DNA of 44,244 bases from Candidatus Dormiibacterota bacterium (GTDB taxonomy: Bacteria > Chloroflexota > Dormibacteria > Dormibacterales > Dormibacteraceae): positions 1 through 44,244 of the forward strand of contig DATCNF010000133.1 in assembly GCA_036565325.1 (NCBI GenBank), written 5' to 3'. The notes beneath the pieces are model-generated. The model made no database searches and had not been told where the DNA came from. It saw only the letters and a list, made by a program, of their open reading frames with translations. This document shows positions 4,589 through 43,082 of the stretch, piece after piece (position 1 is the stretch's first letter; each line of letters starts with the position of its first letter). A program made the position numbers and the translations under genes.

Positions 4589-5647
<1,059 letters not shown>

Positions 5648-5689: not shown

Positions 5690-6520
5690 GTGATCCCAGC
5701 AGCCCTGGCGCTGGTCCTCGGCGCGGCCGGGATGCACGCCGCCTGGAACGTGATGCTCAAGGGCTCCTCCGATCCCCTGCGGCTCTCGCTGCGCGCGCTG
5801 GTCACGGGGACCGTCCTCTTCGCGCCGCTGGTACTGGGGGCCTGGCTGGTCACCGGCCGCCCCGGCCTGCAGCCGGCGGGCTGGCTCTGCGTGGCCGGCT
5901 CGGCGGTCGCCGAGCTCTTCTACTTCGTCTTCCTCAGCCACGCCTACCGGCACGGCGAGCTGTCGTTCGTCTACCCGATCGCTCGCGGCACCGGTCCCCT
6001 GATCGCGGTGGCGGCCGGGCTCCTGATCCTGCGCGAGCGCCTGGGCGCGCTCCAACTGGTGGGAGTCGCCGCGCTGCTGCTTGGGATCTGGCTCGTGCGC
6101 CGGCCGGCGGGCGCCTCCGGACCCCTGCTGGCGGCCCTCGCCACCGGCCTCTTTATCGGCACTTACACGGTGATCGACAGGGTCGGCGTGCAGCAGGGAC
6201 CGCCCTGGCTCTACGGCTGGTTCGTGTTCGCGCTCAGCGTCGTCCTGCTGGCGGGCTGGGTGGCGCTATTCGGCGGCGACGGGGATGCCCCCGGCTGGCG
6301 ACGCTCCACGGTGGTCGGCTTCCTGATGACCGCCACCTTCTACCTGGTCCTGGTGGCGCTGGCGGTGGCGCCGGTCGCGGTGGTGGCGCCGGCCCGGGAG
6401 TCGGCGATCGTGCTGGTCAGCGCCTGGGGCGTGCTCCGCATGCGGGAGCGCGAGGGCCTGCCGCTCAAGCTGGGGGGCGCGGGGGCCATCCTGGCCGGCG
6501 TCGTCATGCTCGTGATCTAG
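5690..6520 (+). CDS. EamA/DMT-superfamily transporter
   Basis: 276 aa, about 10 hydrophobic helices in two similar halves, GTG start. Confidence 0.8.
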   Translation: MIPAALALVLGAAGMHAAWNVMLKGSSDPLRLSLRALVTGTVLFAPLVLGAWLVTGRPGLQPAGWLCVAGSAVAELFYFVFLSHAYRHGELSFVYPIARGTGPLIAVAAGLLILRERLGALQLVGVAALLLGIWLVRRPAGASGPLLAALATGLFIGTYTVIDRVGVQQGPPWLYGWFVFALSVVLLAGWVALFGGDGDAPGWRRSTVVGFLMTATFYLVLVALAVAPVAVVAPARESAIVLVSAWGVLRMREREGLPLKLGGAGAILAGVVMLVI

Positions 6521-6553
6521 GGTGAAAGATCCGAGCGCCGGCGCTCGGCTTGT

Positions 6554-7408
6554 TTACGGACGCAGCGCCGCGATCAGGCGCACGACTTCGTCGGTGAAAT
6601 CGCCGGGCGAGCCAGGTCCCCAGGCGACTGTCTGCACGATCGCCCAGCCGCGCGCCCGGGCCCGGTCCACGCCCGTCAGGTCGGTGAGCTGGTCGAACCG
6701 CCGGCGCACCCGGCGCGCCGGGTTGGGATCGCGGGCGAGGTCCGGGCGGCGGTCGCGGAGCAGCGCCGCCAGGTCGTACGCGGGGTCTCCGCTGATCGGT
6801 TTGGGATCGATCATCAGCCACGGCTCCCGGCCGCCCGCGAGCGCGTTTCCCTGGTGGAAGTCCTGGTGCAGCACGACCGGCGCCGGCGCCGGTTCCAGGA
6901 GGCCGGGGATCAGCTCCATCGCCTCTTCCACGGCGGGGTCGCCGGGCACCAGCTCCTGGGCCCAGCGGCGGGCGATCGACTCCAACGTCCGGTACCGCGA
7001 GCCGGGCGGCGGCGGCCGCCAGACCCGGCGCAGGATCGCGGCCGAGATCGCGTTAGCCCGTTCCTCCGGCAGTGTCCCGAGCGAGCGGTCGGCCTGCAGG
7101 CGCTCCAGCAGCAGCGCCCCGCGGCCGTCGTCGCAGAAGAGCCGTACCGCGCCTTCGCCGTCGAAGAGCCGCAGCGCGTCAGCCTCATGCTCGCTCTCCT
7201 CGTGGAAGCCCCAGCTGACCTTGAGCACCTGCTCCGCGCCCGCGTCGTAGACCACACTGGTGACGCCGGTTCCCAACACCGGGCCGAGCTCCAACGACCA
7301 CTCCTCGGCGAGCCGCTCCAGGCGCGCGGGAAGGTCCTCCAGCCAGCGCCGGCCGTCGGGAAACAGTCTCAGCGTCCGCTCGGCAAACGCCGAGGGCACG
7401 GCGGTCAA
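6554..7408 (-). CDS. Aminoglycoside phosphotransferase-fold kinase, APH(6)/hydroxyurea-kinase-like
   Basis: 284 aa. Has an EQVLKV lysine region, catalytic loop VLHQDFHQGNAL, and IDPKPISGDPAYDLA, in the order I recall for streptomycin 6-kinase-type enzymes. TTG start at 7408 (GTG 7399 is the alternative). Confidence 0.7.
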   Translation of the reverse strand: MTAVPSAFAERTLRLFPDGRRWLEDLPARLERLAEEWSLELGPVLGTGVTSVVYDAGAEQVLKVSWGFHEESEHEADALRLFDGEGAVRLFCDDGRGALLLERLQADRSLGTLPEERANAISAAILRRVWRPPPPGSRYRTLESIARRWAQELVPGDPAVEEAMELIPGLLEPAPAPVVLHQDFHQGNALAGGREPWLMIDPKPISGDPAYDLAALLRDRRPDLARDPNPARRVRRRFDQLTDLTGVDRARARGWAIVQTVAWGPGSPGDFTDEVVRLIAALRP

Positions 7409-7420
7409 TCGCCCTGACGG

Positions 7421-7488
7421 GACCCCGGGTATCCCGGGCTATCGGCCGTCATGACGCGTTAGACCCCGGACATCCCGGGCTATCCGCC
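7421..7488. repeat. Two 27-bp direct repeats (24/27 identical, 41-bp period) with a CCCGGG core, upstream of the kinase gene
   Basis: 7421-7447 GACCCCGGGTATCCCGGGCTATCGGCC and 7462-7488 GACCCCGGACATCCCGGGCTATCCGCC, located between the IlvD-family stop and the kinase start. Confidence 0.75.
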
Positions 7489-12511: not shown

Positions 12512-13120
12512 ATGGCCGCACCTGTCGAGCTGGTCGTCTTCTCCGACTACGTCTGACCCTTCTGCTACATCGACTCGGTCCGGGTCGAGCAGTTGGAGCG
12601 CGAGGGACTGGTCGAGGTGACCTGGCTGCCGTTCGAGCTGCACCCGCAGGTGCCGGCCGCGGGCATCTCGCGCGAGCGCTACTTCGGCCCCGGCCGAAGC
12701 GAGCAGATGCGGGCTCACCTGCAGGCGGCAGCCGCCGAGGTCGGCCTCACCATGGAGGCTCGCGAGGTGCTCATCAACTCACGCCTGGCGCTGGCCACGG
12801 CGGAGTTCGCCCGCGAGCGGGGCGCCTACCAGGTGGCGCACCGCGCGCTCTTCGAGGCCCACTGGCACCTGACCGGAAAGCTCGAGAACGTGGAGGACCT
12901 GAAGCGGATCGCGGCTGGCTGCGGGCTCGATCCCGAGGAGCTGGGCGTGGCGCTGGCCGAGGGCCGTTACGAGCCGGTGCTCGACGAGAACAGGCGGGAG
13001 GCGGAGTCGATCGGCGTCAACGCGATCCCCGCCCACATCTTCGGCGGCCGCTACCTGGTCGTCGGCGCCCACCCCTATGAGCTGTTCCTGCAGGTGGTGG
13101 ACCGGCTCAGGACAGCTTGA
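12512..13120 (+). CDS. DsbA/FrnE-family thiol-disulfide oxidoreductase with in-frame TGA (12554-12556) at the first CxxC position; candidate selenoprotein (alternatively a nonsense pseudogene)
   Basis: From ATG 12512 the frame reads MAAPVELVVFSDYV-TGA-PFCYIDSVRVEQLEREGL and joins ORF 12593..13120 in the same frame. FSDYVCPFCY is the expected DsbA/FrnE N-terminal active-site context. The rest (WLPFELHP..., IPAHIFGGRYLVVGAHPYELF) is DsbA_FrnE-like. Confidence 0.6.
12570..12588 (+). promoter_or_regulatory. SECIS-like stem-loop 13 nt 3' of the in-frame UGA
   Basis: UCGACUC-GGUCC-GGGUCGA: 7 bp (one G.U) with a 5-nt loop starting GGU. The loop starts 20 nt after the UGA. Confidence 0.4.
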
Positions 13121-27556: not shown

Positions 27557-28237
27557 CTAGTTCGTGGGCTTGGCGCCGAAGAGCCGCCGGATGCGGTCCC
27601 AGAGCACCAGGAAGAAGAGGCTCAGCGCATTGACGGGCTTGGCGGTGGCCATCGGTCGCGGCGCGACCGGTGCGACCTGGGCGGGGGTGGCCGGCGCCGC
27701 CGTGGCCGCCGCGGCATCGGCGCCGGTGGCCGCCGCTTCCGCGACCGCCGGTGCTTCAGCCGCGCTCACTTCGATGGCGCCGGGCGCCCCCTCGCCTTCG
27801 AGGTTGGACTTGATGCAGGCGGCCATCTGGCTGACCAGGCGCCGGGAGACGTCCTCCATCACGCCGCGCCCGAAGTTGGCGACCCGGCCGGCAACTGTGA
27901 AGTCGGTCTCCAGCTTGACCGTGGAGCCGGCGCCGTCGGCCAGCACGCTCATGGTGGCGGTGGCGTTGGCGGAGCCGGGACCGGTGGTCTCGCGACCGCT
28001 GGCTTCCAGCTTCGCGATCCGCGCCGCGTCGTCCTTTTCGATGATCTTGGCGGTGCCGTTGTAGGCCACCGTGATGGGGCCGACCTTGATCTTCACCTTG
28101 CCCTTGAAGGTGGTCGGGTCGACTACCTCGGAGAGCTCGGCGCCCGGCATGCAGCCGACCACGCGGTTGATGTCGACCAGGAATGCAAAAACCGTGTCCG
28201 GCGGGGCGGCGACTGGGAACTGGTTCTCGATCTGCAT
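27557..28237 (-). CDS. coxG: CoxG/SRPBCC-family protein with Ala/Pro-rich linker and C-terminal hydrophobic tail
   Basis: N-terminal ~145 aa MQIENQFPVAAPPDTVFAFLVDINRVVGCMPGA... is CoxG-like. It is followed by an AP-rich low-complexity stretch and VNALSLFFLVLWDRIRRLF. Confidence 0.8.
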   Translation of the reverse strand: MQIENQFPVAAPPDTVFAFLVDINRVVGCMPGAELSEVVDPTTFKGKVKIKVGPITVAYNGTAKIIEKDDAARIAKLEASGRETTGPGSANATATMSVLADGAGSTVKLETDFTVAGRVANFGRGVMEDVSRRLVSQMAACIKSNLEGEGAPGAIEVSAAEAPAVAEAAATGADAAAATAAPATPAQVAPVAPRPMATAKPVNALSLFFLVLWDRIRRLFGAKPTN

Positions 28238-28258
28238 CAGGCCTGCGCCCTAAGGTAC

Positions 28259-28285
28259 TGCGAAATATACTGACCACGTTTCGCA
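28259..28285. promoter_or_regulatory. Inverted repeat TGCGAAA-N13-TTTCGCA enclosing TATACT/TATATT hexamers in the coxG/coxS divergent spacer; candidate operator plus promoters
   Basis: 7-bp perfect arms at 28259-28265 and 28279-28285. TATACT at 28266-28271. This is the only clearly AT-richer spacer in the window. coxS has its own SD (GGGAGG at 28362-28367, 6 nt before the ATG). Confidence 0.45.
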
Positions 28286-28373
28286 CGTTCGTCTGGTCTG
28301 GGGGTATAGCCAAGGGCGAACCTGCTATGCCGCGCTCTTCAACTTGTCCACCCACAACAGCGGGAGGTAGCGG

Positions 28374-28904
28374 ATGAAGCACAAGGTCGCGACCACCATC
28401 AATGGGAGGGGCCGGCAAGACGAAGTCGAGGCTCGACTCCTCCTCGTCCACTACATACGCGACGTCGCCGGCCTGACCGGCACCCATGTCGGGTGCGACA
28501 CCAGCCAGTGCGGCGCCTGCACGATCCTGGTCGATGGCAAGGCCATCAAGTCCTGCACCATGTTCGCCGTCCAGGCCGAGGGGCGCCAGCTCACGACCAT
28601 CGAGGGCCTGGCCGACGGGGACACGCTGCATCCCATCCAGCAGGCCTTCTGGGATGAGCACGGACTGCAGTGCGGCTACTGCACGCCCGGCTTCATCATG
28701 GCCGCCAAGTACCTCCTCGACACCAACCCCAGCCCCAGCGACGACGAGATCCGCAAGGGCCTGGAAGGCAACCTGTGCCGCTGCACCGGCTACGTCAACA
28801 TCATCAAGGCCGTGAAGACGGCCTCCCAGGTCATGGGTGGCGCGCAGCAGGCGAAGCCTGCGACCGCCGGCCAGCCGGTGGGCCAGCCCACGGCAGGGAG
28901 CTAG
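28374..28904 (+). CDS. coxS: Molybdenum hydroxylase small subunit, [2Fe-2S]-binding (CoxS/CutS-like)
   Basis: Both Fe-S cluster motifs are present: [10 protein letters not shown] and CGYCTPGF...CRCTGY. Confidence 0.95.
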
Positions 28905-28908
28905 AGCG

Positions 28909-31449
28909 ATGGCGATCAGCAAGATGATCGGCGCCAAGATCCATCGCCGCGAAGATCCCCGGCTGGTCTCCGGCGGCGGCCGCTACATGGACGACTTCAA
29001 ACGGCCCAACACCACCTACGCCGCTTTCATCCGCAGCCCTTACGCGCACGCCAAGATCCGGATGATCGACCCCACCGAGGCCAAGCAGGCGCCCGGGGTC
29101 GTGGCCGTGTTCACCGCGAAGGACTTCGAAGGCGTGCTGATGGGCCCGGCGCCGGTCGCGCCGGCCTTCGTGGCCGAGAAGCACACGGTTCCCGACCGGC
29201 CGCCGCTGCCGCTCGACGAGGTCGTCTACCAGGGCCAGCCCGTGGCCATGGTGATCGCCGAGTCGAAGGCCGAGGCCGCCGACGCGGCGGCGCTGGTCCA
29301 GGTCGACTACGAGCCGCTGCCCGCGGTCATGGACCTCGAGAAGGCCCTCGACCCCAGCAGCCCCAAGGCGCACACCGCGCTGCCCGACAACATCGCCTGG
29401 GACCTGGTCTACAACGCTGACGCCGACTCGAGCTTCGCCGAGGCCGAGGTCACCGTGAAGGAGCGGATCCTGCAGCAGCGCCTGGCGCCGACTCCAATGG
29501 AGACGCGCAGCGTGATGGCCGAGTGGAGCCCACACGAGGGCTCGATGACGCTCTGGCTCTCCAACCAGGGTCCCCACTTCATCCGCCTCTTCGTGGGCGG
29601 CGCGCTGGGGCTTCCCGAAAACCGCATGCGCGTCATCTCGCCCGATGTGGGCGGAGGCTTCGGCGCCAAGATCTGCCCCTACCCCGAGGACTACCTGGTG
29701 CCGGGGGCCGCCAAGATTCTCAAGCGACCGGTCAAGTGGACCGAGAGCCGCACCGAGTCGATCCAGGTCACCACCCACGGCCGCGGCCAGATCTTCGACG
29801 TCGAGGTCGCCGGCATGAAGGACGGCACGCTGCTGGGCATGAAGGTCACCCAGTACCTGGACGCGGGGGCCTACATCGGCACCTTCGGCGCCTTCCAGGC
29901 CTGCGCCTGCCTGCTGGCGGGTGGCGGCTACAAGTGGAAGCAGATCGCCGCCCGCACCATCGGCGTGCTCACCAACAAGGTTTCCACCGATCCCTACCGC
30001 GGCGCCGGCCGGCCCGAGGCCACCCACCTGGTGGAGCGCATGGTCGACGTCTTCGCTCGCGAGATCGGGATGGACCCCGCGGCGGTCCGCAAGAAGAACT
30101 TCGTCCAGCCCGGAGACTTCCCCTACACCCAGAACTTCGGGCTGGTCATGGACTCCGGCGACTACGAGCGCTCGCTCGACAAGGCGATGCAGATCGTCGG
30201 CTACGAGCAGGTGCGCAAGGAGCAGGAGGAGGGCCGTAAGCAGGGCCGCTATATCGGCATCGGGCTCTCCACCTGGATCGAGATCTGCGGCTTCGGCCCG
30301 GCGGCCGCCACCGCCCCGGCCACCGGCGGGATCGGGCTCGTGGAGTCGGCACAGGTACGCGTGTATCCCACCGGTTCGGTGACGGTCTGGACCGGCACCC
30401 ACTCGCACGGCCAGGGGCACGAGACCACGTTCAGCCAGATCGTGGCCGACACCCTGGGCATCCCCTACGACCAGATCGAGATCAAGCACGGCGACACCGG
30501 CGAAGGCACCGCCTTCGGCTACGGGACCTACGGGTCGCGCTCGCTGGCCGTCGGCGGGATGGCGATCAAGATGGCCTCGCAGAAGGTCGTCGACAAGGCC
30601 AAGCAGATCGCCGCCCATTCCTTCGAGGCGGCCGAAGAGGACGTCGTCTTCGAAGGCGGCGAGTTCTACGTCAAGGGCTCGCCCGACAACCGGCGCAAGA
30701 TCCAGGAGGTCGCGTTCGAGGCCTACGGCGCCGCGCTGCCGGAAGGCATGGAGCAAGGGCTGGAGGCGGTCGCCTACTTCGATCCGCCCAACTTCGTGTG
30801 GCCCTTCGGCGCCCACATCTGTGTGGTCGAGGTGGACATCGAGACGGGCGCCGTCAAGATGCTGAAGTACGTGGCCGTGGACGACTGCGGCAACGTGATC
30901 AACCCCATGATCGTGGAGGGCCAGCTGCACGGCGGAATCGCGCAGGGCATCGCCCAGGCCCTCTTCGAAGAAGTGATCTACGCGGAGGACGGCAGCCTGC
31001 GCACGGGCACGCTGCTCGACTACGCGATCCCCACGGCCAACGAGATGCCGCCGCTCACCCTAGACAGCACGGTGACCCCCTCGCCGACCAACGCGCTCGG
31101 CGTCAAGGGCATCGGTGAGGCGGGCACGATCGCGGCCAGCGGGGCCGTGATCAACGCCATCGTGGACGCGCTTTCGCCCCTTGGCGTGCGCCACGTCGAC
31201 ATGCCGGCCAGCCCGGACCGGCTCTGGAAGCAGCTGCAGGAGCACCGCACCGGCCTCGAGGGCTACCACACGGTGGCCGTCGCCGACACCCCCGAGGTTG
31301 ACGACGCGCCGCGCAAGGGCGGGCCCGAGTCCGAGCTGCCCGGCAGCCTGGACGAGGGCGAGATCGGCAAGACCGGCGGCAAGGCCGAGCCCGGCTCGGA
31401 AGGCTCGCCGCAGGAGGGGCCGCGCCACCAGAAGGACTACGACCGATGA
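28909..31449 (+). CDS. Molybdenum hydroxylase large subunit (xanthine dehydrogenase family; form-II CoxL-like) with ~65-aa acidic/Gly/Pro C-terminal extension
   Basis: ATG 28909 lies 8 nt after AGGGAG. Aldehyde-oxidase/XDH a/b-hammerhead and MoCo-binding domains are present. The active-site loop reads DPYRGAGRPEA (about 29989-30021). GIGEAGTIAA lies near the C-terminus. Confidence 0.9.
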   Translation: MAISKMIGAKIHRREDPRLVSGGGRYMDDFKRPNTTYAAFIRSPYAHAKIRMIDPTEAKQAPGVVAVFTAKDFEGVLMGPAPVAPAFVAEKHTVPDRPPLPLDEVVYQGQPVAMVIAESKAEAADAAALVQVDYEPLPAVMDLEKALDPSSPKAHTALPDNIAWDLVYNADADSSFAEAEVTVKERILQQRLAPTPMETRSVMAEWSPHEGSMTLWLSNQGPHFIRLFVGGALGLPENRMRVISPDVGGGFGAKICPYPEDYLVPGAAKILKRPVKWTESRTESIQVTTHGRGQIFDVEVAGMKDGTLLGMKVTQYLDAGAYIGTFGAFQACACLLAGGGYKWKQIAARTIGVLTNKVSTDPYRGAGRPEATHLVERMVDVFAREIGMDPAAVRKKNFVQPGDFPYTQNFGLVMDSGDYERSLDKAMQIVGYEQVRKEQEEGRKQGRYIGIGLSTWIEICGFGPAAATAPATGGIGLVESAQVRVYPTGSVTVWTGTHSHGQGHETTFSQIVADTLGIPYDQIEIKHGDTGEGTAFGYGTYGSRSLAVGGMAIKMASQKVVDKAKQIAAHSFEAAEEDVVFEGGEFYVKGSPDNRRKIQEVAFEAYGAALPEGMEQGLEAVAYFDPPNFVWPFGAHICVVEVDIETGAVKMLKYVAVDDCGNVINPMIVEGQLHGGIAQGIAQALFEEVIYAEDGSLRTGTLLDYAIPTANEMPPLTLDSTVTPSPTNALGVKGIGEAGTIAASGAVINAIVDALSPLGVRHVDMPASPDRLWKQLQEHRTGLEGYHTVAVADTPEVDDAPRKGGPESELPGSLDEGEIGKTGGKAEPGSEGSPQEGPRHQKDYDR

Positions 31450-31627
31450 CCCGGGCCGCACCGGGCCAGCCGGACGTCGACGACGCTCCCCGCCGCGGGG
31501 GGCCGCAGTCGCCGCTGCCGGGAAGCCTCGACGAGGGCCAGATCGCGGGCACCGGCGGCTCCGCCGAGCCCGGTTCCGAAGGCTCGCCGCAAGAAGGACC
31601 ACGCCACCAGGAGGATTACGACCAGTG
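31270..31627 (+). repeat. Tandem duplication, 2 x 179 bp, spanning the coxL 3' end and the junction to coxM
   Basis: GTTGACGACGCG... at 31297 recurs as GTCGACGACGCT... at 31476, and the stop codons at 31447-31449 and 31626-31628 are 179 nt apart. The encoded peptides match at about 42 of 52 aligned residues (my count). Confidence 0.85.
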
Positions 31628-31628
31628 A
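31446..31628 (+). CDS. 60-aa ORF paralogous to the CoxL C-terminal tail (acidic, Gly/Pro-rich)
   Basis: ATG overlaps the coxL stop (ATGA), and its own stop overlaps the coxM GTG (GTGA). Sequence: ...DVDDAPRRGGPQSPLPGSLDEGQIAGTGGSAEPGSEGSPQEGPRHQEDYDQ. Divergence from copy 1 is mostly synonymous in the last 14 codons. Confidence 0.5.
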   Translation: MTRAAPGQPDVDDAPRRGGPQSPLPGSLDEGQIAGTGGSAEPGSEGSPQEGPRHQEDYDQ

Positions 31629-32431
31629 TACCCGCTGCGTTCGAATACGCCCGCGCCTCCTCGGTGCAGGAGGCATCCGACCTGCTCGGCAAGTTCGGCG
31701 AGGACGCCAAGGTCCTCGCCGGCGGCCACAGCCTGATCCCGCTGATGCGGCTGCGCCTGGCGCAGCCGTCCGCGCTCGTGGACATCACCGGCGTCAAGGA
31801 GCTCTCCTACATCACGCGGGAGAACGGCAAGCTCCGGATCGGCGCCCTCACCCGCCACGTGGAGATCCACAACAGCGAGGAGATCAAGCAGAGCCTGCCG
31901 ATCCTGGCCGAGGTGGCCTCCGAGGTGGGGGACAACCAGGTGCGCAACATGGGCACCATCGGCGGCGTCATCGCGCACGCCGACTCGGCCGGCGACTACC
32001 CGACGCTCTGCGTCATGCTCGACGCCGAGATCGTCACCAACAAGCGGCGGCACGCCGCGCACGAGTTCTTCCAGGACCTCTTCACGACCCCCCTGGAGAA
32101 CGACGAGATCGTGTGCGAGGTCGTCTTCCCGGTGGCCAGCGGGGCGCACAAGTACATCAAGTTCCGGCGCCGCCTCTTCGACTGGGCGATCGTGGGCGCG
32201 GCCGCCCAGCGCACCGACCAGGGGTGGCGGATCGGGCTCACCAACGTGGGGCCGACGCCGGTCCGGGCGGTGGCGGTCGAGCAGGCGCTCGGCCAGGGTG
32301 CCTCGCCTTCAGAGGCTGCCGAGCACGCCTCGGACGGGCTCAACCCGAGCGGCGACATCCGGGCCACCCCCGAGTACAAGAAGCACCTGGCGAGGGTGCT
32401 GACACGACGCGCCATCGAACAGTCTCAATAG
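31625..32431 (+). CDS. coxM: Molybdenum hydroxylase medium subunit, FAD-binding (CoxM/CutM-like)
   Basis: GTG 31625 gives VIPAAFEYARASSVQEASDLL...AGGHSLIPLMRLRL, a typical CoxM N-terminus. The upstream part of ORF 31181..32431 is a frame shadow over the coxL tail. Confidence 0.9.
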   Translation: MIPAAFEYARASSVQEASDLLGKFGEDAKVLAGGHSLIPLMRLRLAQPSALVDITGVKELSYITRENGKLRIGALTRHVEIHNSEEIKQSLPILAEVASEVGDNQVRNMGTIGGVIAHADSAGDYPTLCVMLDAEIVTNKRRHAAHEFFQDLFTTPLENDEIVCEVVFPVASGAHKYIKFRRRLFDWAIVGAAAQRTDQGWRIGLTNVGPTPVRAVAVEQALGQGASPSEAAEHASDGLNPSGDIRATPEYKKHLARVLTRRAIEQSQ

Positions 32432-32466
32432 ACGCCGGACATGGGTGGGGGCCACGGCTGCACGCC

Positions 32467-32829
32467 GTGGCCCTCGCCACGGCGGCGCCGGGCACGGTGC
32501 TGATCGCCGTCCGGCTCTGGAGCGCGGCCGCCGGGGTAGCGGCTTCGGCGTTCCGGATGCTCGGGCCGTACGTGCACCCGGCTGCGATCACCCTCGTCGT
32601 GCTGGCATTGGCCCTCCTCGCACTGGCCGTCCCGGCCTGGCGCGGCAACCCCTTGGCGGTGGCCGCCGGCACCGCGCTGCTGGTGGTGGTCGCGCTGGTC
32701 AGCGCCCAGCTGGTCGTCGCCGACCGCTCCGCCTACCTCCTGCTGGGGGTGGCGCTGCTGGGCGCCGCCCCAGGCGCGTTCCTGGTGAGCGGCCCGGCGT
32801 TCTTCGACCCCGCCCGCACCCGGCGCTGA
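32467..32829 (+). CDS. Hypothetical small membrane protein
   Basis: The frame-1 tail of ORF 32113..32829 is hydrophobic (3-4 helices) with high GC3. GTG 32467 is the first plausible start after the coxM stop. Confidence 0.4.
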   Translation: MALATAAPGTVLIAVRLWSAAAGVAASAFRMLGPYVHPAAITLVVLALALLALAVPAWRGNPLAVAAGTALLVVVALVSAQLVVADRSAYLLLGVALLGAAPGAFLVSGPAFFDPARTRR

Positions 32830-32865
32830 GTTAGCCCCGGCACAGGTCCGGGTAGCCTTACTGCT

Positions 32866-33813
32866 GTGAACCGAGACTCACCCCACGAAACCTTGCGGTT
32901 TCGCGGGGACCCCGAGGACGGGGCCGCGCCCGCCTCCATCGACGACCTCATGGCGCGGCTGCGCGAGCGCAGCTACATCGGCGACCGCGCCCTCGCCACC
33001 TCGATCTACCTGGCCCTCAAGCTCGGCAAACCCCTCTTCATCGAAGGCGAGGCCGGGGTGGGCAAGACAGAGGCCGCCAAGGTCATGGCCGACGTCCTGG
33101 GCGCGCGCCTGATCCGGCTCCAGTGCTACGAAGGCATCGACCTCGCGCACGCGGTCTACGAGTGGAACTATCCCCGCCAGCTCCTGCACATCCGGCTCCT
33201 CAACGAGACCTCGGACCGGGGCGCTGCCGAGAAGCAGATCTACAGCCCGGAGTTCCTGCTCCGGCGGCCGCTGCTGGACGCCATCGACAACCACGACCCG
33301 GTGCCGCCGGTGCTCCTGATCGACGAGATCGACCGCTCGGACGAGGAGTTCGAGGCCTTCCTGCTCGAGGTCCTCAGCGAGTTCCAGATCTCGATCCCCG
33401 AGCTGGGCACCATCACCGCCACCCAGGCGCCCTTCGTGGTGATCACCTCCAACCGCACTCGCGAGGTCCACGACGCGCTCAAGCGCCGCTGCCTCTATCA
33501 CTGGATCGACTACCCGAACCTGGAGAAGGAGATCGCGATCGTGCGCGCCCGCGCGCCTGAGGCCGCCGAGGGCCTGGCCCGCGAGGTGGCCCAGCTGGTC
33601 CAGAACCTGCGGGGCATGGAGCTCTACAAGGTCCCCGGCGTGGCCGAGACGCTGGACTGGGCGCGCTCGCTGGCCGCGCTGGGCGCCACCAACCTGGATC
33701 CCCAGCTGGTCGACGCCACCCTGGGCGCGGCCCTCAAGTACCAGGAGGACCTGGAGAAGGCGCGCGAGAACCTGCCCGAGCTGGTGGCCAAATCTCGTAT
33801 CGGCGGTGGCTGA
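32866..33813 (+). CDS. coxD: MoxR-family AAA+ ATPase (CoxD-like)
   Basis: Walker A GEAGVGKT, Walker B VLLIDEIDR, FVVITSNRT. The start is uncertain: GTG 32866, TTG 32893 and ATG 32950 are all in frame, and the first ~12 codons have low GC3. Confidence 0.85.
   Translation: MNRDSPHETLRFRGDPEDGAAPASIDDLMARLRERSYIGDRALATSIYLALKLGKPLFIEGEAGVGKTEAAKVMADVLGARLIRLQCYEGIDLAHAVYEWNYPRQLLHIRLLNETSDRGAAEKQIYSPEFLLRRPLLDAIDNHDPVPPVLLIDEIDRSDEEFEAFLLEVLSEFQISIPELGTITATQAPFVVITSNRTREVHDALKRRCLYHWIDYPNLEKEIAIVRARAPEAAEGLAREVAQLVQNLRGMELYKVPGVAETLDWARSLAALGATNLDPQLVDATLGAALKYQEDLEKARENLPELVAKSRIGGG
32886..32903. promoter_or_regulatory. Inverted repeat CGAAACC-ttgc-GGTTTCG at the 5' edge of the coxD-like gene
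   Basis: Perfect 7-bp arms. It shares the CGAAA/TTTCG half-site with the coxG/coxS spacer repeat. Confidence 0.3.
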
Positions 33814-35017
33814 GCGCCCGCGCGCCGACCTCCTGCCGCGCCTGGCGACCTTCGCGCGGCTCCTCCATGACGCCGGCCTCGAGGCCGGCCCGGGCCGCCT
33901 GACCGACTCCGCGCGGGCCCTCGGGCACATCGACCTGCGCCTGCAGGAGGACTTTCGTAGCGCCCTGCGCTCGGTGTTCGTGAGCCGCAAGGAGGAGCTG
34001 CCCATCTTCGAGGCGGCCTTCGACATCTTCTGGGCGCCCCCCGACCCGCGCATCCTGGCCGGGGCCATCCCGGGGCGGCCGCGCCCGCTCCCGCTGCCGC
34101 CCGAGAAGGCCCGGGCCTGGATGCAGCTGCTCGGCCTCAACACCTCGCGCATGCCGCGCGAGCAGGAGGGCGAGCCCCCGCCGGCGACCAGCTCCGGCTA
34201 CAGCGCCCAGGAGCTGCTGCGGCGCAAGGACTTCGAGGACCTGACCTGGCAGGAGACCGAGCAGGTAAAGCGCCTGCTGCAGCAGTCGCCGTGGCGGATC
34301 GCGGAGCGGAAGACGCGCCGGGTGCGCCCCTCCTCGCGGGGCTCGGTCGACCTCCGGCGCACCGCGCGCCGCTCGATCCGGACCAGCGGCGAGATGGTCA
34401 CGCTGCTGCACCGGCAGCCGCGCCTGCGCCGGCGCCCGATCGTGCTCCTCTGCGACGTCAGCGGCTCGATGGAGAAGTACAGCCGGCTGCTGCTGATCTT
34501 CGCCCACGCCATCGCTCGGCGCGAGGACGTGGAAACCTTCGTCTTCTCCACCCGGCTGACGCGCATCACGCGCCTGCTTCGCCGGCGCGACCTCGACCGG
34601 GCGCTGGCGGATGTCAGCAAGCAGGTGCACGACTTCAGCGGCGGCACCCGGATCGGCCAGGCCCTGGCCGACTTCAACCGGCGCTGGGCGCGGCGCGTGC
34701 TGGGGCACGGCGCGGTCGTGATCGTGGTCAGCGACGGGTGGGATCGCGGCGACCCCTCCCAGCTCGAGCACGAGCTCTCGCGCCTGCATCGGATGGCACA
34801 TCGCCTGATCTGGCTCAACCCGCTGCTCGGCTCGGAGGGCTATGAGCCGCTGACGCGCGGCATGCAGGCCGCGCTGCCCCACACCGACGACTTCCTGGCC
34901 GCCCACAACCTGCAGGCGCTGGATGAATTGGGCCGGCTGCTGGCCGGTTTAAATCGTCATCGGCGCCCGCGGCACGCGGAGCGCGTGGCTAAGGTGGAGC
35001 AAGAGATCGATGCGTGA
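33806..35017 (+). CDS. coxE: VWA-domain protein (CoxE-like)
   Basis: 403 aa. MIDAS-type VLLCDVSGSM and VVIVVSDGWDRG. GTG start overlaps the coxD end by 8 nt. Confidence 0.85.
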   Translation: MAERPRADLLPRLATFARLLHDAGLEAGPGRLTDSARALGHIDLRLQEDFRSALRSVFVSRKEELPIFEAAFDIFWAPPDPRILAGAIPGRPRPLPLPPEKARAWMQLLGLNTSRMPREQEGEPPPATSSGYSAQELLRRKDFEDLTWQETEQVKRLLQQSPWRIAERKTRRVRPSSRGSVDLRRTARRSIRTSGEMVTLLHRQPRLRRRPIVLLCDVSGSMEKYSRLLLIFAHAIARREDVETFVFSTRLTRITRLLRRRDLDRALADVSKQVHDFSGGTRIGQALADFNRRWARRVLGHGAVVIVVSDGWDRGDPSQLEHELSRLHRMAHRLIWLNPLLGSEGYEPLTRGMQAALPHTDDFLAAHNLQALDELGRLLAGLNRHRRPRHAERVAKVEQEIDA

Positions 35018-35990
35018 AGTCCTGGACGAGTACCTGGCGTGGCGGCGGCAGATCCCGAAGGTCGAGATCGCGATCGCGACCGTGACCGAGACCTGGGGGT
35101 CGAGCCCGCGCCCGCTGGGCTCCAAGATGATCGTCAGCTCGGACGGCAAGATGGCGGGGTCGGTCTCCAACGGCTGCGTGGAGGGGGCCGTCTTCGAGGA
35201 AGCCCAAAAGGTGCTGGCGAGCGGCCAGTCAAAGCTGGTCGACTATGGCGTCGCCGATGAGACCGCATTCGAGGTCGGGCTGGCCTGCGGGGGCCACATC
35301 CAGGTCCTGATCGCGGTGGCCAGCGAGGTCCACGACAGCCTGGCCGAGAAGCTGGTGGAGAACCGCCCCTGCTACCTGGAGACCGACCTCGGCAACGGCG
35401 AAGCGGCGCTGCTGCTCAAGGCGCCCGACCGGGACCAGCCCTGGCGCGAGGGTGACCTCTTCGTCGAGCCCTTCGCCCGCCTGCCGCACATGGTGATCGT
35501 GGGCGCCATCCACATCGCGGTGCCCCTGCACCGGCTGGCCAAGCTGATGGGCTACCGGGTGACGGTGGTCGACGCCCGCGCCAAGTTCGCGACCGAGGAG
35601 CGCTTCCCGGAGGCGGACGAGGTGATCGTGGCCTGGCCGGACGAGGCGCTGGCGGGCATCCCGATCGACCGCTCGACGGCGGTCGTGATCCTGACCCACG
35701 ACCCCAAGTTCGACATGCCCGCGCTGCGCGCGGTGCTCGGCAAGGGGGCCGGGTACATCGGGGCCATCGGGTCCAACAAGACCAACGCCAACCGGTTCGA
35801 CGCGCTGCGCGAGGAGGGCTTCTCGGACGAGGCTCTGGCTGCGGTGCACGGGCCGATCGGTCTCGACCTGGGGGGCCGGGGTGCCGAGGAGACGGCGCTC
35901 GGGATCATGGCCGAGGTCACGGCCGCCCGCCACGGCGGGACGGGCCGGTTCATGCGCGAGGTGCGGGCGAAGCAGGCCGCCTCGGCCTAA
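35010..35990 (+). CDS. XdhC/CoxI-family molybdenum-enzyme maturation protein
   Basis: 326 aa. N-terminal XdhC_CoxI domain (ATVTETWGSSPRPLGSKMIV..GSVSNGCVE) and a C-terminal Rossmann-like domain (MVIVGAIHIAVPL). Confidence 0.85.
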   Translation: MREVLDEYLAWRRQIPKVEIAIATVTETWGSSPRPLGSKMIVSSDGKMAGSVSNGCVEGAVFEEAQKVLASGQSKLVDYGVADETAFEVGLACGGHIQVLIAVASEVHDSLAEKLVENRPCYLETDLGNGEAALLLKAPDRDQPWREGDLFVEPFARLPHMVIVGAIHIAVPLHRLAKLMGYRVTVVDARAKFATEERFPEADEVIVAWPDEALAGIPIDRSTAVVILTHDPKFDMPALRAVLGKGAGYIGAIGSNKTNANRFDALREEGFSDEALAAVHGPIGLDLGGRGAEETALGIMAEVTAARHGGTGRFMREVRAKQAASA

Positions 35991-36003
35991 GCAGCGGGCC
36001 AGA

Positions 36004-36077
36004 CCCACCCGCATTCCCCGGGAAATGTGCCGTGGGTGGGCGCCGAAACGCGGCATTCCCCGGGTAATGCGTTTTGG
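36004..36077. terminator. Two tandem hairpins between convergent genes, each with GCATTCCCCGGG(A/T)AATG in its loop
   Basis: Hairpin 1: CCCACCC (36004-36010) pairs with GGGTGGG (36034-36040). Hairpin 2: CCGAAACGC (36043-36051) pairs with GCGTTTTGG (36069-36077; 9 bp, one G.T). Loop motifs at 36011-36027 and 36053-36069 are 42 bp apart. Confidence 0.55.
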
Positions 36078-36100
36078 GCGGCCCGCGGGGGGGTCTCCCT

Positions 36101-36961
36101 TTACTCCGCCAGGCGGCGGAGCTCGTCCATGTTCGCCTTGTCCGGGCCCTCTCCGGCGCCCGGGACCTCGAGGACGAACGGCGTGTCGCGCAGGCGCGGG
36201 TCGTGGAGGAGCGCCCGGAAGCCGTCCTCTCCGATCTCGCCCTGGCCGATGTTGGCGTGGCGGTCGCGGTTGGAGCCGAGGCCGGTCTGGGAGTCGTTGG
36301 CATGGATCGCCTCCAACCTCTCGATCCCCACCACGCGGTGCCACTCGTCGAGCGTCCTCTCCGCCGTCTCCACGGTGCGCAGGTCGTAGCCCGAGGCGAA
36401 GGCGTGGCAGGTGTCGAAGCAGACCCCGGCGCGCGGGTCGTCGACCGCGTCCAGCAGGGCGCGCACCTCCTCGAAACGGGCGCCCACGCAGCCCCCCAGG
36501 CCGGCGTTGTTCTCGATCAGCAGGTGCGCGGTCTGGGGGTCGGCGCGCTCCATCACCCGCAGCAGGTGCTCGCGGATCTGGGGCAGGACTTTCTCGAAGC
36601 CCTGGCCCTTGTGGCTGCCGGTGTGGAAGATCACGCCCGTGATCCCGAGCTGGTCGGCGGCGGCCAGGTAGCCCGCCAGGGTCGATTCCGAGCGCTGGCG
36701 CAGGGTGGCGTCGTCGCCGGCCAGGTTGATCAGGTAGACGGCATGGAAGAAGAAGGGCGGATTGCCGGCCGCGTCGGCGGCCTCCTTGAACTTGGCGATG
36801 CGCTCCTCGTCGAGCTTGGGCGAGCCCCAGAATCCGGGTGGCGTGGGGTGGCACTGGATCGACACCGCGCCCATGGCCGCGGCGCGGCCGAAGGCCAGGT
36901 GGAGGCCGCCCGAAGAGTCGACGTGGGCGCCGAGAATGGGCACCCGCCGATTGTGCCCCAT
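36101..36961 (-). CDS. nfo: Deoxyribonuclease IV (endonuclease IV)
   Basis: ATG 36961 gives 286 aa. VPILGAHV, FFFHAVYLINLA, IFHTGSH, LLIENNAG, FDTCHAF and HANDS are the AP-endonuclease-2 metal-ligand motifs. The upstream part of ORF 36101..37990 is shadow. Confidence 0.9.
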   Translation of the reverse strand: MGHNRRVPILGAHVDSSGGLHLAFGRAAAMGAVSIQCHPTPPGFWGSPKLDEERIAKFKEAADAAGNPPFFFHAVYLINLAGDDATLRQRSESTLAGYLAAADQLGITGVIFHTGSHKGQGFEKVLPQIREHLLRVMERADPQTAHLLIENNAGLGGCVGARFEEVRALLDAVDDPRAGVCFDTCHAFASGYDLRTVETAERTLDEWHRVVGIERLEAIHANDSQTGLGSNRDRHANIGQGEIGEDGFRALLHDPRLRDTPFVLEVPGAGEGPDKANMDELRRLAE

Positions 36962-37003
36962 GCGGGGAGGGGGGGCCCTGAGAGTACCCTGCGCGGGTCC
37001 CCG

Positions 37004-37942
37004 ATGGCCGTCTTCCTGATGAGCGACCTCGACCTGCCGCTCCGCGACCGGACCTATCGAGAACCGGAGGGTCCGCACGTGCTCCTGGTGCGTGGTCGCG
37101 AGCTCGACGATGCGCTCGAGCACCTCGATGCGCGGCCCGATTGCCGGGCCCTGGGGATCATCGGCCCGGTCGCCGGCGACGTGCCCGACCTCGCCCTCGT
37201 GCAGGGCCGCCGCCTCCTCGTCTGCTGCGAGGACGGGCCCCGGATGCGCGAGCTGGCGGAGGCGGGGATGAACGCCGGCGCGGAGGTTGAATGGCTGCGC
37301 TCCGACAAGCCGGACTTCGACCGCCTGGCGGCCTGGGCCCTGCCGGTGGTCGGCGTGGTGCTGGCGGCGGGGGCGGCCACCCGGATGGGCAGCAACAAGC
37401 TGCTGCTCGACGCCGGCGGCCAGCCGCTGGTCTGCCACGTGGTGGAGGCGGCGTCCGAGGGGGGCTGCCACCACGTGATCGCCGTCTATTCCCAGCCCGG
37501 CGTGCGCGAGGCCATCGGCAACTCCGCGCTCTGCGTCGAGAACCCGCAGGCGGCCACCGGCCAGGCCTCCTCGCTGCGGGTGGGGCTGGCCGCCGTGCCC
37601 GAGGACATGGCCGGCGCGCTGATCCTGCTCGGAGACCAGCCACTGGTCGGCTCGCGCACGGTCGAGGTCGTCCTCCGGGCCTGGCGCCGCGAGGGCGCGC
37701 GGCCCGCGGTCGCGACCTCCTACAACGGCAAGAAGAAGGACTGGCGCCCGCCCGTCCTGCTCGACCGCGCCCTCTGGCCGGAGCTCATGAACCTGGAGGG
37801 GGATGCCGGCGCCCGGCAGGTCCTGGAGGGGCGGCCGGAGTTGGTCGATACTGTGCATTCGGCCGGCCGGCCGGACGACGTCGACACTCCCGAGGACTAT
37901 GCCAAGATCGTCCACCTCTTCCCTGGAGAGAGCCCGCGCTGA
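37004..37942 (+). CDS. MobA/MocA-like molybdenum cofactor nucleotidyltransferase with 88-aa N-terminal extension
   Basis: The core is VVGVVLAAGAATRMGSNKLL...LLGDQPLV. ATG 37004 opens a high-GC3 frame. An internal GGAGG (37258-37262) lies 5 nt before in-frame ATG 37268, which would give a canonical ~224-aa protein. Confidence 0.75.
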   Translation: MAVFLMSDLDLPLRDRTYREPEGPHVLLVRGRELDDALEHLDARPDCRALGIIGPVAGDVPDLALVQGRRLLVCCEDGPRMRELAEAGMNAGAEVEWLRSDKPDFDRLAAWALPVVGVVLAAGAATRMGSNKLLLDAGGQPLVCHVVEAASEGGCHHVIAVYSQPGVREAIGNSALCVENPQAATGQASSLRVGLAAVPEDMAGALILLGDQPLVGSRTVEVVLRAWRREGARPAVATSYNGKKKDWRPPVLLDRALWPELMNLEGDAGARQVLEGRPELVDTVHSAGRPDDVDTPEDYAKIVHLFPGESPR

Positions 37943-41747: not shown

Positions 41748-43082
41748 CTAGCTATCAGGTTCGGTGAGCTCGGTACGCAAGAGCTTGCCGCCCTCGCTGC
41801 GGGGCAGGCGGTCGACGAAGACGAAGCGCCTGGGCACCTTGAATCCGGCCAGCCGCTCCCGCGCGAACGCCGCCAGCTCCTCACCGCCGGCTCCCTCGCC
41901 GACGACCCGTGCCTCCAGCACCTGGCCCCAGGTGGGGTCCGGGACCCCGACCACGGCAGCGTCGCGGACCGCGGGGTGGGCGCGGAGCACCTCCTCCACC
42001 TCCAGCGGCTGCACGTTCTCCCCCCCGGTGATGATGGCGTCGTCCAGGCGGCCCGTCACCTCGAGTGCCCCGCCGGCGCGGATCCGGCCGCCGTCGCCGG
42101 ATCGGAATTGGCCTCCTTCGGGCGCCGGCCGGACTGCCGCGTTGACGTAGCCCGGCGACAGGACCGGCCCGCCCACCACGATCTCGCCGTCGACCACCTC
42201 GACGGTGGCTCGCGAATGGGCGAAGCCGGCCGTGCCGGCCAGCTCCTCGGCCGCGCCCGGCGGCACCGTGGCAACTTGTGACCCGGTCTCGCTGAGACCG
42301 TAGGTGGGACAGACCTGGAGGCCCAGGCGCGCCCAGGCGCGCACGTTCTCGGCGGGTGCCGGGGCGCCTCCGAGCAGGATCGCCCGCGCCCGCAGGAGCG
42401 GCTCCAGCCCGCCCGCGTCGAGGAGGCGGACCAGCATGGTCGGAACCAGGGAGAGCAGCGTGCAGCGCTCGCGGGCGAGCGCCTCCAGCACCCGTTCCGC
42501 GTCGAATCGCTCCAGCACCGTGACCGGCTGGTTGGAGACCGCCGAGCGGACCAGGATCGCCAGCCCGCCCACGTGATGGGGTGCCAGGCAGAGCAGCCAG
42601 CGGTCGTCCGGGGTGGAGGCCAGGCTCTCCTGGCAGCCCTCGGCCGAGGCGAGCAGGTTGGCCGCGGTGAGGCGCACGCCCTTGGGCGGCCCGGTCGTGC
42701 CCGACGTGTAGACGATGCAGGCGTCCCCTTCGGCGCCGCCGGCCGCCCCCTCGCGAAGGGCCGGCTCACCGTCCGCGACCAGCACGCGCGGGCCGCAGTC
42801 GGCCAGCAGGCGTTCGATCACGGATGGGGGCGCCCGCATGGGCAGCGGGACGAAGGCATAGCCCTGGCGCAGGCAGGCGAAGAGGAGCGCGGCGAAGCGG
42901 GCTCCGGCGGGCTCCCGGACCGCGACCCGGTCGCAGGGCTGCACGCCCAGCCGCTGCAGCCGGCGCGCCCAGGCCGTCGCCAGCCCGTCGAGGTCGAACC
43001 AGCTGATCCAGAAGCCCGCGCCGGCATCGACCAGCGCCCGGCGCGGCCCGTCCCTACGGCTCCTCTCCCGCAGTAGGTCCAT
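41748..43082 (-). CDS. menE: O-succinylbenzoate-CoA ligase-like AMP-binding enzyme
   Basis: 444 aa. [35 protein letters not shown]. The short MenE-type length and the position divergent from menB support the call. Confidence 0.75.

Follow-up and report, generated by a model that had tools for sequence, protein, structure and literature searches.

Analysis of a 44,244-nt stretch of DNA from a Candidatus Dormiibacterota bacterium (hereafter the window) indicates that positions 12512-13120 probably encode a SECIS-dependent, selenocysteine (Sec)-containing oxidoreductase of the DsbA/FrnE type, a reading to which we assign, on the evidence of sequence comparison, a probability of about 0.92. Both the ORF list for the window and the public gene calls on identical contigs place the start of this gene at TTG 12593, yielding a product of 175 aa. 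From ATG 12512, the same frame reads MAAPVELVVFSDYV-TGA(12554-12556)-PFCYIDSVRVEQLEREGL and stays open to 13118-13120, and the 27 residues dropped by the TTG start belong to the DSBA domain. We conclude that the public 175-aa annotation is wrong, and that the gene is one of 202 codons, probably for a SECIS-dependent selenoprotein. Its features, all on the plus strand, are as follows.

12512..13120, + strand: full coding sequence of the predicted DsbA/FrnE-like selenoprotein, 202 codons including Sec15, then a TGA stop; complete PF01323 domain
12512..12514, + strand: start codon ATG; no in-frame start lies between it and the stop upstream
12554..12556, + strand: predicted Sec-encoding UGA, residue 15; 24 of 27 related loci also have TGA here
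12554..12565, + strand: redox motif U-P-F-C (Sec15, Cys18), lying over C-P-W-C of FrnE
12570..12588, + strand: SECIS-like hairpin, overlapping codons I-D-S-V-R-V-E; same offset in 25 of 25 Sec-type sequences
12593..13120, + strand: 175-aa ORF, a truncated call from TTG 12593 without the active site; annotation artefact
13028..13030, + strand: Pro173, aligned with the Pro of the FrnE G-V-P segment
13118..13120, + strand: true stop codon of the gene, also TGA

In most of the relatives described below, the first in-frame start likewise lies 11-20 codons 5' of the TGA. A scan of the window for in-frame TGA codons with coding-like GC3 on both sides returned two sites, the one at 12554-12556 and an ordinary stop at 5645, and no further candidate for a selenoprotein gene in the 44 kb.

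Having read the frame through the TGA, we compared its product with known folds. The PF01323 (DSBA) profile covers residues 7-194 of the read-through protein, over profile positions 2-188 of 191 (E 4.2e-29), and the closest solved relative is Deinococcus radiodurans FrnE (PDB 5cnw), which aligns over residues 5-195 with an E-value of 3e-18. In this alignment, 'wSDIACPWCYIGKRRFE' of FrnE lies over 'fSDYV[TGA]PFCYIDSVRVE'. Because the CPWC of FrnE falls over U-P-F-C, the TGA occupies the position of the N-terminal cysteine of the CxxC motif. Further along, the FrnE segment 'GITGVPFFVLGG' aligns over 'GVNAIPAHIFGG', such that the G-V-P of FrnE matches A-I-P in the present protein. The proline of this segment, Pro173, is probably that of the cis-Pro loop of the thioredoxin fold, which faces the active site. 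The product contains only two cysteines, C18 and C137, the second of which is not conserved. With 14 residues before Sec15 there is no room for a signal peptide, so the protein is probably cytoplasmic. No NCBIfam family matched the read-through product above its threshold.

These results bear out what the initial annotation had proposed from the letters of the window: that a coding-like frame runs from ATG 12512 through the TGA (it does, as a 202-codon frame with a complete DSBA-fold product), that ORF calling truncates the gene at TTG 12593 (the start found in both the ORF list and the public calls), that the product is a thioredoxin-fold oxidoreductase of the DsbA/FrnE type (as the PF01323 and 5cnw matches agree), and that the TGA replaces the nucleophilic first cysteine of CxxC to give UPFC (the column being confirmed by alignment with Cys-type FrnE).

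Scanning a single genome for each GTDB species gave 28 loci, each of which was read upstream in frame. An in-frame TGA is present at exactly the same column in 24 of the 27 related loci (L001-L024), flanked as SDY[VIL]-TGA-P[FW]C. Their labels are Dormibacterota, Chloroflexota, Gaiellales (Actinomycetota) and Bacillota, and their protein identity to the window's product ranges from 80-82% down to about 32%. The motif U-P-[FW]-C is kept in all Sec-type loci, and none of the related loci has a frameshift or an extra stop 3' of the TGA. Cysteine is found at the U column in the most distant relatives, two from Steroidobacteraceae (L025 and L026) reading SDVVCPWCY, and a third (L027) reading CPYS. 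Across the Dormibacterota loci, gene order is conserved, with IlvD-RraA-HpcH-2-hydroxyacid dehydrogenase on one side and aminotransferase-PaaK-FAD oxidase on the other. This synteny indicates that the loci are orthologues, and that the TGA has been retained over a long divergence.

Inspection of the codons 5' of the TGA, which lie outside the annotated gene, revealed synonymous variation: serine is written TCC, TCT, TCG, TCA or AGC, aspartate GAC or GAT, valine GTC or GTT, phenylalanine TTC or TTT, and leucine CTG, CTC or CTA. The segment upstream of the TGA is evolving as coding sequence, under protein-level selection. A homologue search of a database of 5.8 billion proteins, from which the 120 best matches were examined, showed that at least 107 of these begin just 3' of the U column, at starts that are inconsistent from one homologue to the next (2, 4, 5, 10 or 15 residues before a WLPF anchor). 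A full-length Cys form appeared just once among the 120 best matches (P0010, 67% identity, FSAYVCPWCY); in this clade, the Sec form is by far the more numerous. One further match, a 227-aa protein from a Logan assembly (P0011), reads '...SSSPTTFDPWCYIDSVRV'; it was called in a different frame where it runs into the active site, which suggests that the assembly has an indel near the TGA or that the call is shifted in frame there.

The second element of the locus is the hairpin UCGACUC-GGUCC-GGGUCGA at 12570-12588, which begins 13 nt after the TGA and comprises 7 bp, including one G-U pair; its minimum free energy (MFE) fold has 8 bp closing a 3-nt GUC loop. The segment 12554-12600 folds with an MFE of -19.1 kcal/mol (z = -2.25), a value matched by 5 of 200 shuffles, and in this window of 71% GC a comparable hairpin lies at the same offset after about 3% of all positions and after 29 of the 870 TGA triplets. 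The signal from the single sequence is therefore weak and does not serve as primary evidence; the significance of the hairpin comes instead from its conservation and covariation across relatives.

A hairpin is found at the same offset in all 25 Sec-type sequences. Covariation was measured for an 8-pair stem on an ungapped alignment (A1), in which 95% of stem cells are paired; displacing the 3' arm by 1-3 columns lowers this to 19-53%. Both sides have changed in four of the eight pairs (A-U to G-C; U-A to C-G or G-C; C-G to A-U; G-C to C-G), and the observed covariation score was reached by none of 500 shuffles. In divergent lineages, the stem GACUC/GGGUC is replaced by GGCCAG/CUGGCC, GGCGAG/CUCGUC or GGCCU/GGGCC. 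As these stem changes occur where the encoded peptide differs as well, pairing appears to be kept independently of the protein sequence. The initial annotation had described a 7-bp stem with a 5-nt loop 13 nt downstream of the TGA and had likened it to a bacterial SECIS; its coordinates and sequence are as given there, and conservation of the TGA together with a covarying hairpin in 24 related genomes agrees with the prediction that it is one.

A G stands within the first two loop nucleotides of the window's hairpin and of every other Sec-type hairpin outside three Gaiellales loci; for two of these G-bearing sequences (L016 and L017) the loops were assigned by eye, the outermost pair being broken and the inner stems closing GUC or GUU loops. 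The loop G is treated as common to bacterial SECIS elements in a study of the Sargasso Sea (PMC1088965). The three Gaiellales loci (L022-L024) have the loops CCG, ACCGC and CCU, in hairpins about 16-35 nt after the TGA, and may follow a lineage-specific rule of SelB recognition.

Two other structures were noted in this region. A candidate lower SECIS helix, which in the MFE fold pairs nucleotides 9-12 with 36-39, was 67% paired across the alignment with no compensatory changes, and was rejected. In the two Steroidobacteraceae loci of Cys type (L025:2932-2995 and L026:2932-2995), a weak 5-bp hairpin lies near the SECIS offset after the TGC/TGT codon; this could be a chance fold in GC-rich DNA or a fossil SECIS.

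Several explanations other than Sec insertion might account for a TGA at this position. Single-base mistakes occur in metagenome assemblies, and an error at 12556 in base calling or assembly, with TGC as the true codon, would produce the observed triplet. However, 16 contigs carry a gene for the identical 175-aa product, and six of these, which come from different samples and assemblers (ENA k119, Logan SRR1586306) and diverge from the window by 0-0.45% elsewhere, all have the TGA followed by an identical hairpin; since TGA also stands in all 24 orthologues, the chance of such an error is negligible. A true TGC was a concern that the initial annotation had raised itself, and at the level of assemblies the codon is TGA in each of the six independent ones. 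A real TGC-to-TGA change might alternatively have inactivated a Cys-type DsbA/FrnE gene that is now decaying, an event that needs just one transversion; the close homologue P0010 does have cysteine. We regard a nonsense pseudogene as extremely unlikely, given that the TGA recurs at the identical column in 24 genomes at species level, spread over several phyla and with the frame 3' of it intact, at loci that are not copies of one sequence (32-82% identity), that the upstream codons are under protein-level selection, that the hairpin covaries, and that the same pattern of truncation recurs in no fewer than 107 of the best 120 homologues from the environment. Decay of this locus among relatives, which had also been put forward as a sign against a selenoprotein, was seen 3' of the TGA in none of them. 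Nor has UGA been reassigned genome-wide, as TGA is an ordinary stop here: the gene itself ends in it, as do 10 of 25 orthologues and roughly half of the window's GC3-supported ORFs. Conservation, covariation, the six assemblies and the TGA stops together exclude a pseudogene, a sequencing error and a codon reassignment.

Two further alternatives concern the product. Public gene callers annotate a 175-aa protein, and it is conceivable that a DsbA-like domain without CxxC, starting near TTG 12593, is the real product, with the upstream region acting as a leader peptide or regulatory hairpin. Such a protein would be without strand beta1 and the entire active site, whereas the domain aligns from residue 7; moreover, the called starts disagree among homologues and the upstream peptide keeps an in-frame active-site context, SDY[VI]-x-P[FW]C, all of which makes this option very unlikely. 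The UGA might, on the other hand, be recoded to a residue other than Sec. SelB-dependent insertion of cysteine by a non-canonical tRNA has been reported for some bacteria, and read-through by a near-cognate Trp or Cys tRNA would be another route. The sequence indicates recoding rather than which residue is inserted, and no Sec machinery was observed in the regions searched, which amount to about 63 kb of one genome. Against this stand the covarying hairpin at SECIS spacing with its loop G, which is the signature of canonical Sec insertion, and an established selenoprotein family that shares the UxxC motif; plain read-through would have no use for the hairpin and would leave tryptophan at a catalytic position. 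With nothing in its favor, we consider recoding to a residue other than Sec to be improbable.

The search for the Sec machinery itself covered the window and its immediate surroundings. ARAGORN and Rfam returned no tRNA gene or RNA family in the 44-kb window, and a Pfam scan found no SelA, SelB or SelD among its 40 ORFs. Extending the search by about 9 kb at each end likewise gave no Sec machinery and no tRNA, and there are no tRNA genes in the 27 related loci. Because this search for selA, selB, selC and selD spans about 63 kb of one genome, it speaks neither way on the genome as a whole. The ORFs of the window encode ABC transporters, IlvD, aldolases, dehydrogenases, a coxG/S/L/M/D/E/F-type Mo-hydroxylase cluster and CoA ligases.

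Under the favored reading of a Sec-containing protein, the product would be a cytoplasmic, FrnE-type thiol-disulfide oxidoreductase of the DsbA family, with Sec as its nucleophilic active-site residue (U15-P-F-C18). The UGA at 12554-12556 would be recoded locally, the hairpin at 12570-12588 serving as a bacterial SECIS by bringing SelB-GTP-Sec-tRNA(Sec) to the ribosome while the UGA occupies the A site. In the predicted chemistry, Sec15 and Cys18 alternate between a selenol/thiol pair and a selenenylsulfide, and may thereby reduce or isomerize disulfides in substrates. We infer Sec insertion, SelB binding, the cytoplasmic location and this redox chemistry, whereas the sequences themselves show the gene structure, the fold, the active-site column, the conserved TGA with its covarying hairpin, the selection upstream and the ordinary use of TGA as a stop.

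Proteins of this kind have precedents. COG2761 we take to be the FrnE-type COG. A DsbA-like selenoprotein family assigned to it, with nine sequences, a UxxC motif and predicted SECIS elements, was described in the Sargasso Sea selenoproteome in 2005 (PMC1088965). A census in 2006 placed a DsbA-like selenoprotein in Anaeromyxobacter, Desulfovibrio desulfuricans and Desulfotomaculum reducens (PMC1794560), one in 2016 counted 45 sequences from 41 organisms (PMC5029168), and a 2026 review lists a 'DsbA-like protein form 1' with PF01323 and UxxC, noting the family in Asgard archaea too (PMC13188914). The present gene shares with form 1 the Pfam domain, a UxxC motif with Sec predicted at the first cysteine, a stem-loop right after the UGA and widespread Cys homologues; it agrees with that family in every feature that defines it at the sequence level, and is a predicted member of it. 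The examples of the family named in these papers come from marine metagenomes and from mostly anaerobic Deltaproteobacteria and Clostridia, whereas the loci found here carry Dormibacterota, Chloroflexota and Gaiellales labels.

Two other selenoprotein groups were compared and set aside. 'Form 2' (DxxUP) shares a Sec-containing PF01323 domain, but its motif and the position of Sec differ from those of UxxC. The Rcas_1661 family (NCBIfam NF041057) is also thioredoxin-like and includes selenoproteins, but scored 45.5 bits against a cut-off of 190, matching residues 89-198, that is, the C-terminal half only; moreover, the family is named as a lipoprotein, whereas the N terminus of the present protein is too short to hold a signal peptide. 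The comparison with D. radiodurans FrnE shows a common DSBA fold, a common CPWC/UPFC column and a common proline of the G-V-P segment. FrnE has cysteine where the present protein is predicted to have Sec, and is 260 aa long with a C-terminal extension that the 202-aa protein does not have. This extension of FrnE carries a second pair of cysteines.

The hairpin can be set beside the SECIS of Escherichia coli fdhF in the same manner. By our count, the loop of the fdhF element is G22-G23-U24-C25; the loop here is G24-G25-U26-C27-C28. The published element (PMC8659212) has a 17-nt upper stem-loop located 11 nt from the UGA, U17 being bulged and the loop containing G23/U24, so that the description in the initial annotation of a short fdhF stem-loop about 11 nt after the UGA with a GGUC loop was broadly right. 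Both elements are hairpins within the ORF, just 3' of the UGA, with a short upper stem-loop and a G-U in the apical loop. They differ in their spacers (13 nt here, 11 nt in fdhF) and in that the present stem is continuous, with no bulged U in its 5' arm and no conserved lower helix; the Gaiellales variants, in addition, have different loops. As the Sargasso Sea paper names the loop G alone as common, the missing bulge weakens the description 'fdhF-type' but not that of a bacterial SECIS.

The DsbA-like UxxC family has been catalogued since 2005, so the gene represents a known kind; its modest novelty lies in the lineage, the closest relatives bearing the label Dormibacterota, and in how far the Sec form prevails in this clade. 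No paper linking Dormibacterota and selenocysteine was found in the literature searched, in which a co-mention of 'selen' proved to be SELENBP1, in a methods list. Whether the Sec form is ancestral, vertically inherited and nearly fixed across Dormibacterota and neighboring Chloroflexota and Gaiellales we judge to be an even bet. If it is, Dormibacterota, a soil phylum, would be an unrecognized Sec-decoding phylum with a selenoprotein truncated in essentially all public annotations, and the Gaiellales loops would point to a different rule of SelB-SECIS recognition in that order.

The main value of the present result lies in the corrected annotation, with 202 codons in place of 175 and a predicted active site of U-P-F-C. 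Among the 120 closest entries, at least 107 are cut short likewise, some of them NCBI records named 'DsbA family protein' from Dormibacteraeota MAGs, and NCBIfam has no model that captures this DsbA/FrnE-like selenoprotein. A Sec-containing product would also imply that these soil lineages need selenium and carry the Sec machinery, and would slightly widen the distribution known for selenium use; the understanding of Sec decoding and of DsbA-family chemistry is unchanged.

Some other features of the window and its surroundings were recorded. A Mo-hydroxylase (CO-dehydrogenase-like) cluster spans 27557-37940 and comprises genes for a coxG-like protein, small [2Fe-2S], large MoCo and FAD subunits, an AAA protein (CoxD-like), a VWA CoxE-like protein, an XdhC/CoxF-like protein and a MobA-like NTP transferase. 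On contig k119_313840 of ERZ27248540, which derives from the same population, an IS-type transposase gene (HTH_23/rve; L036:6624-7607) follows the EamA gene; at the counterpart position in the window (6520-6620) lies an APH(6)-like kinase gene (6554-7438, minus strand), a difference that probably reflects either the insertion of an IS in some strains or a break in the assembly. Immediately to the right of the window (L038:3669-9954), adjoining an AMP-ligase gene at 41748-43082, is a run of genes for chorismate-binding, TPP-enzyme, alpha/beta hydrolase, MR_MLE, UbiA prenyltransferase and enoyl-CoA hydratase proteins, which from its Pfam domains looks like a menaquinone-biosynthesis set.
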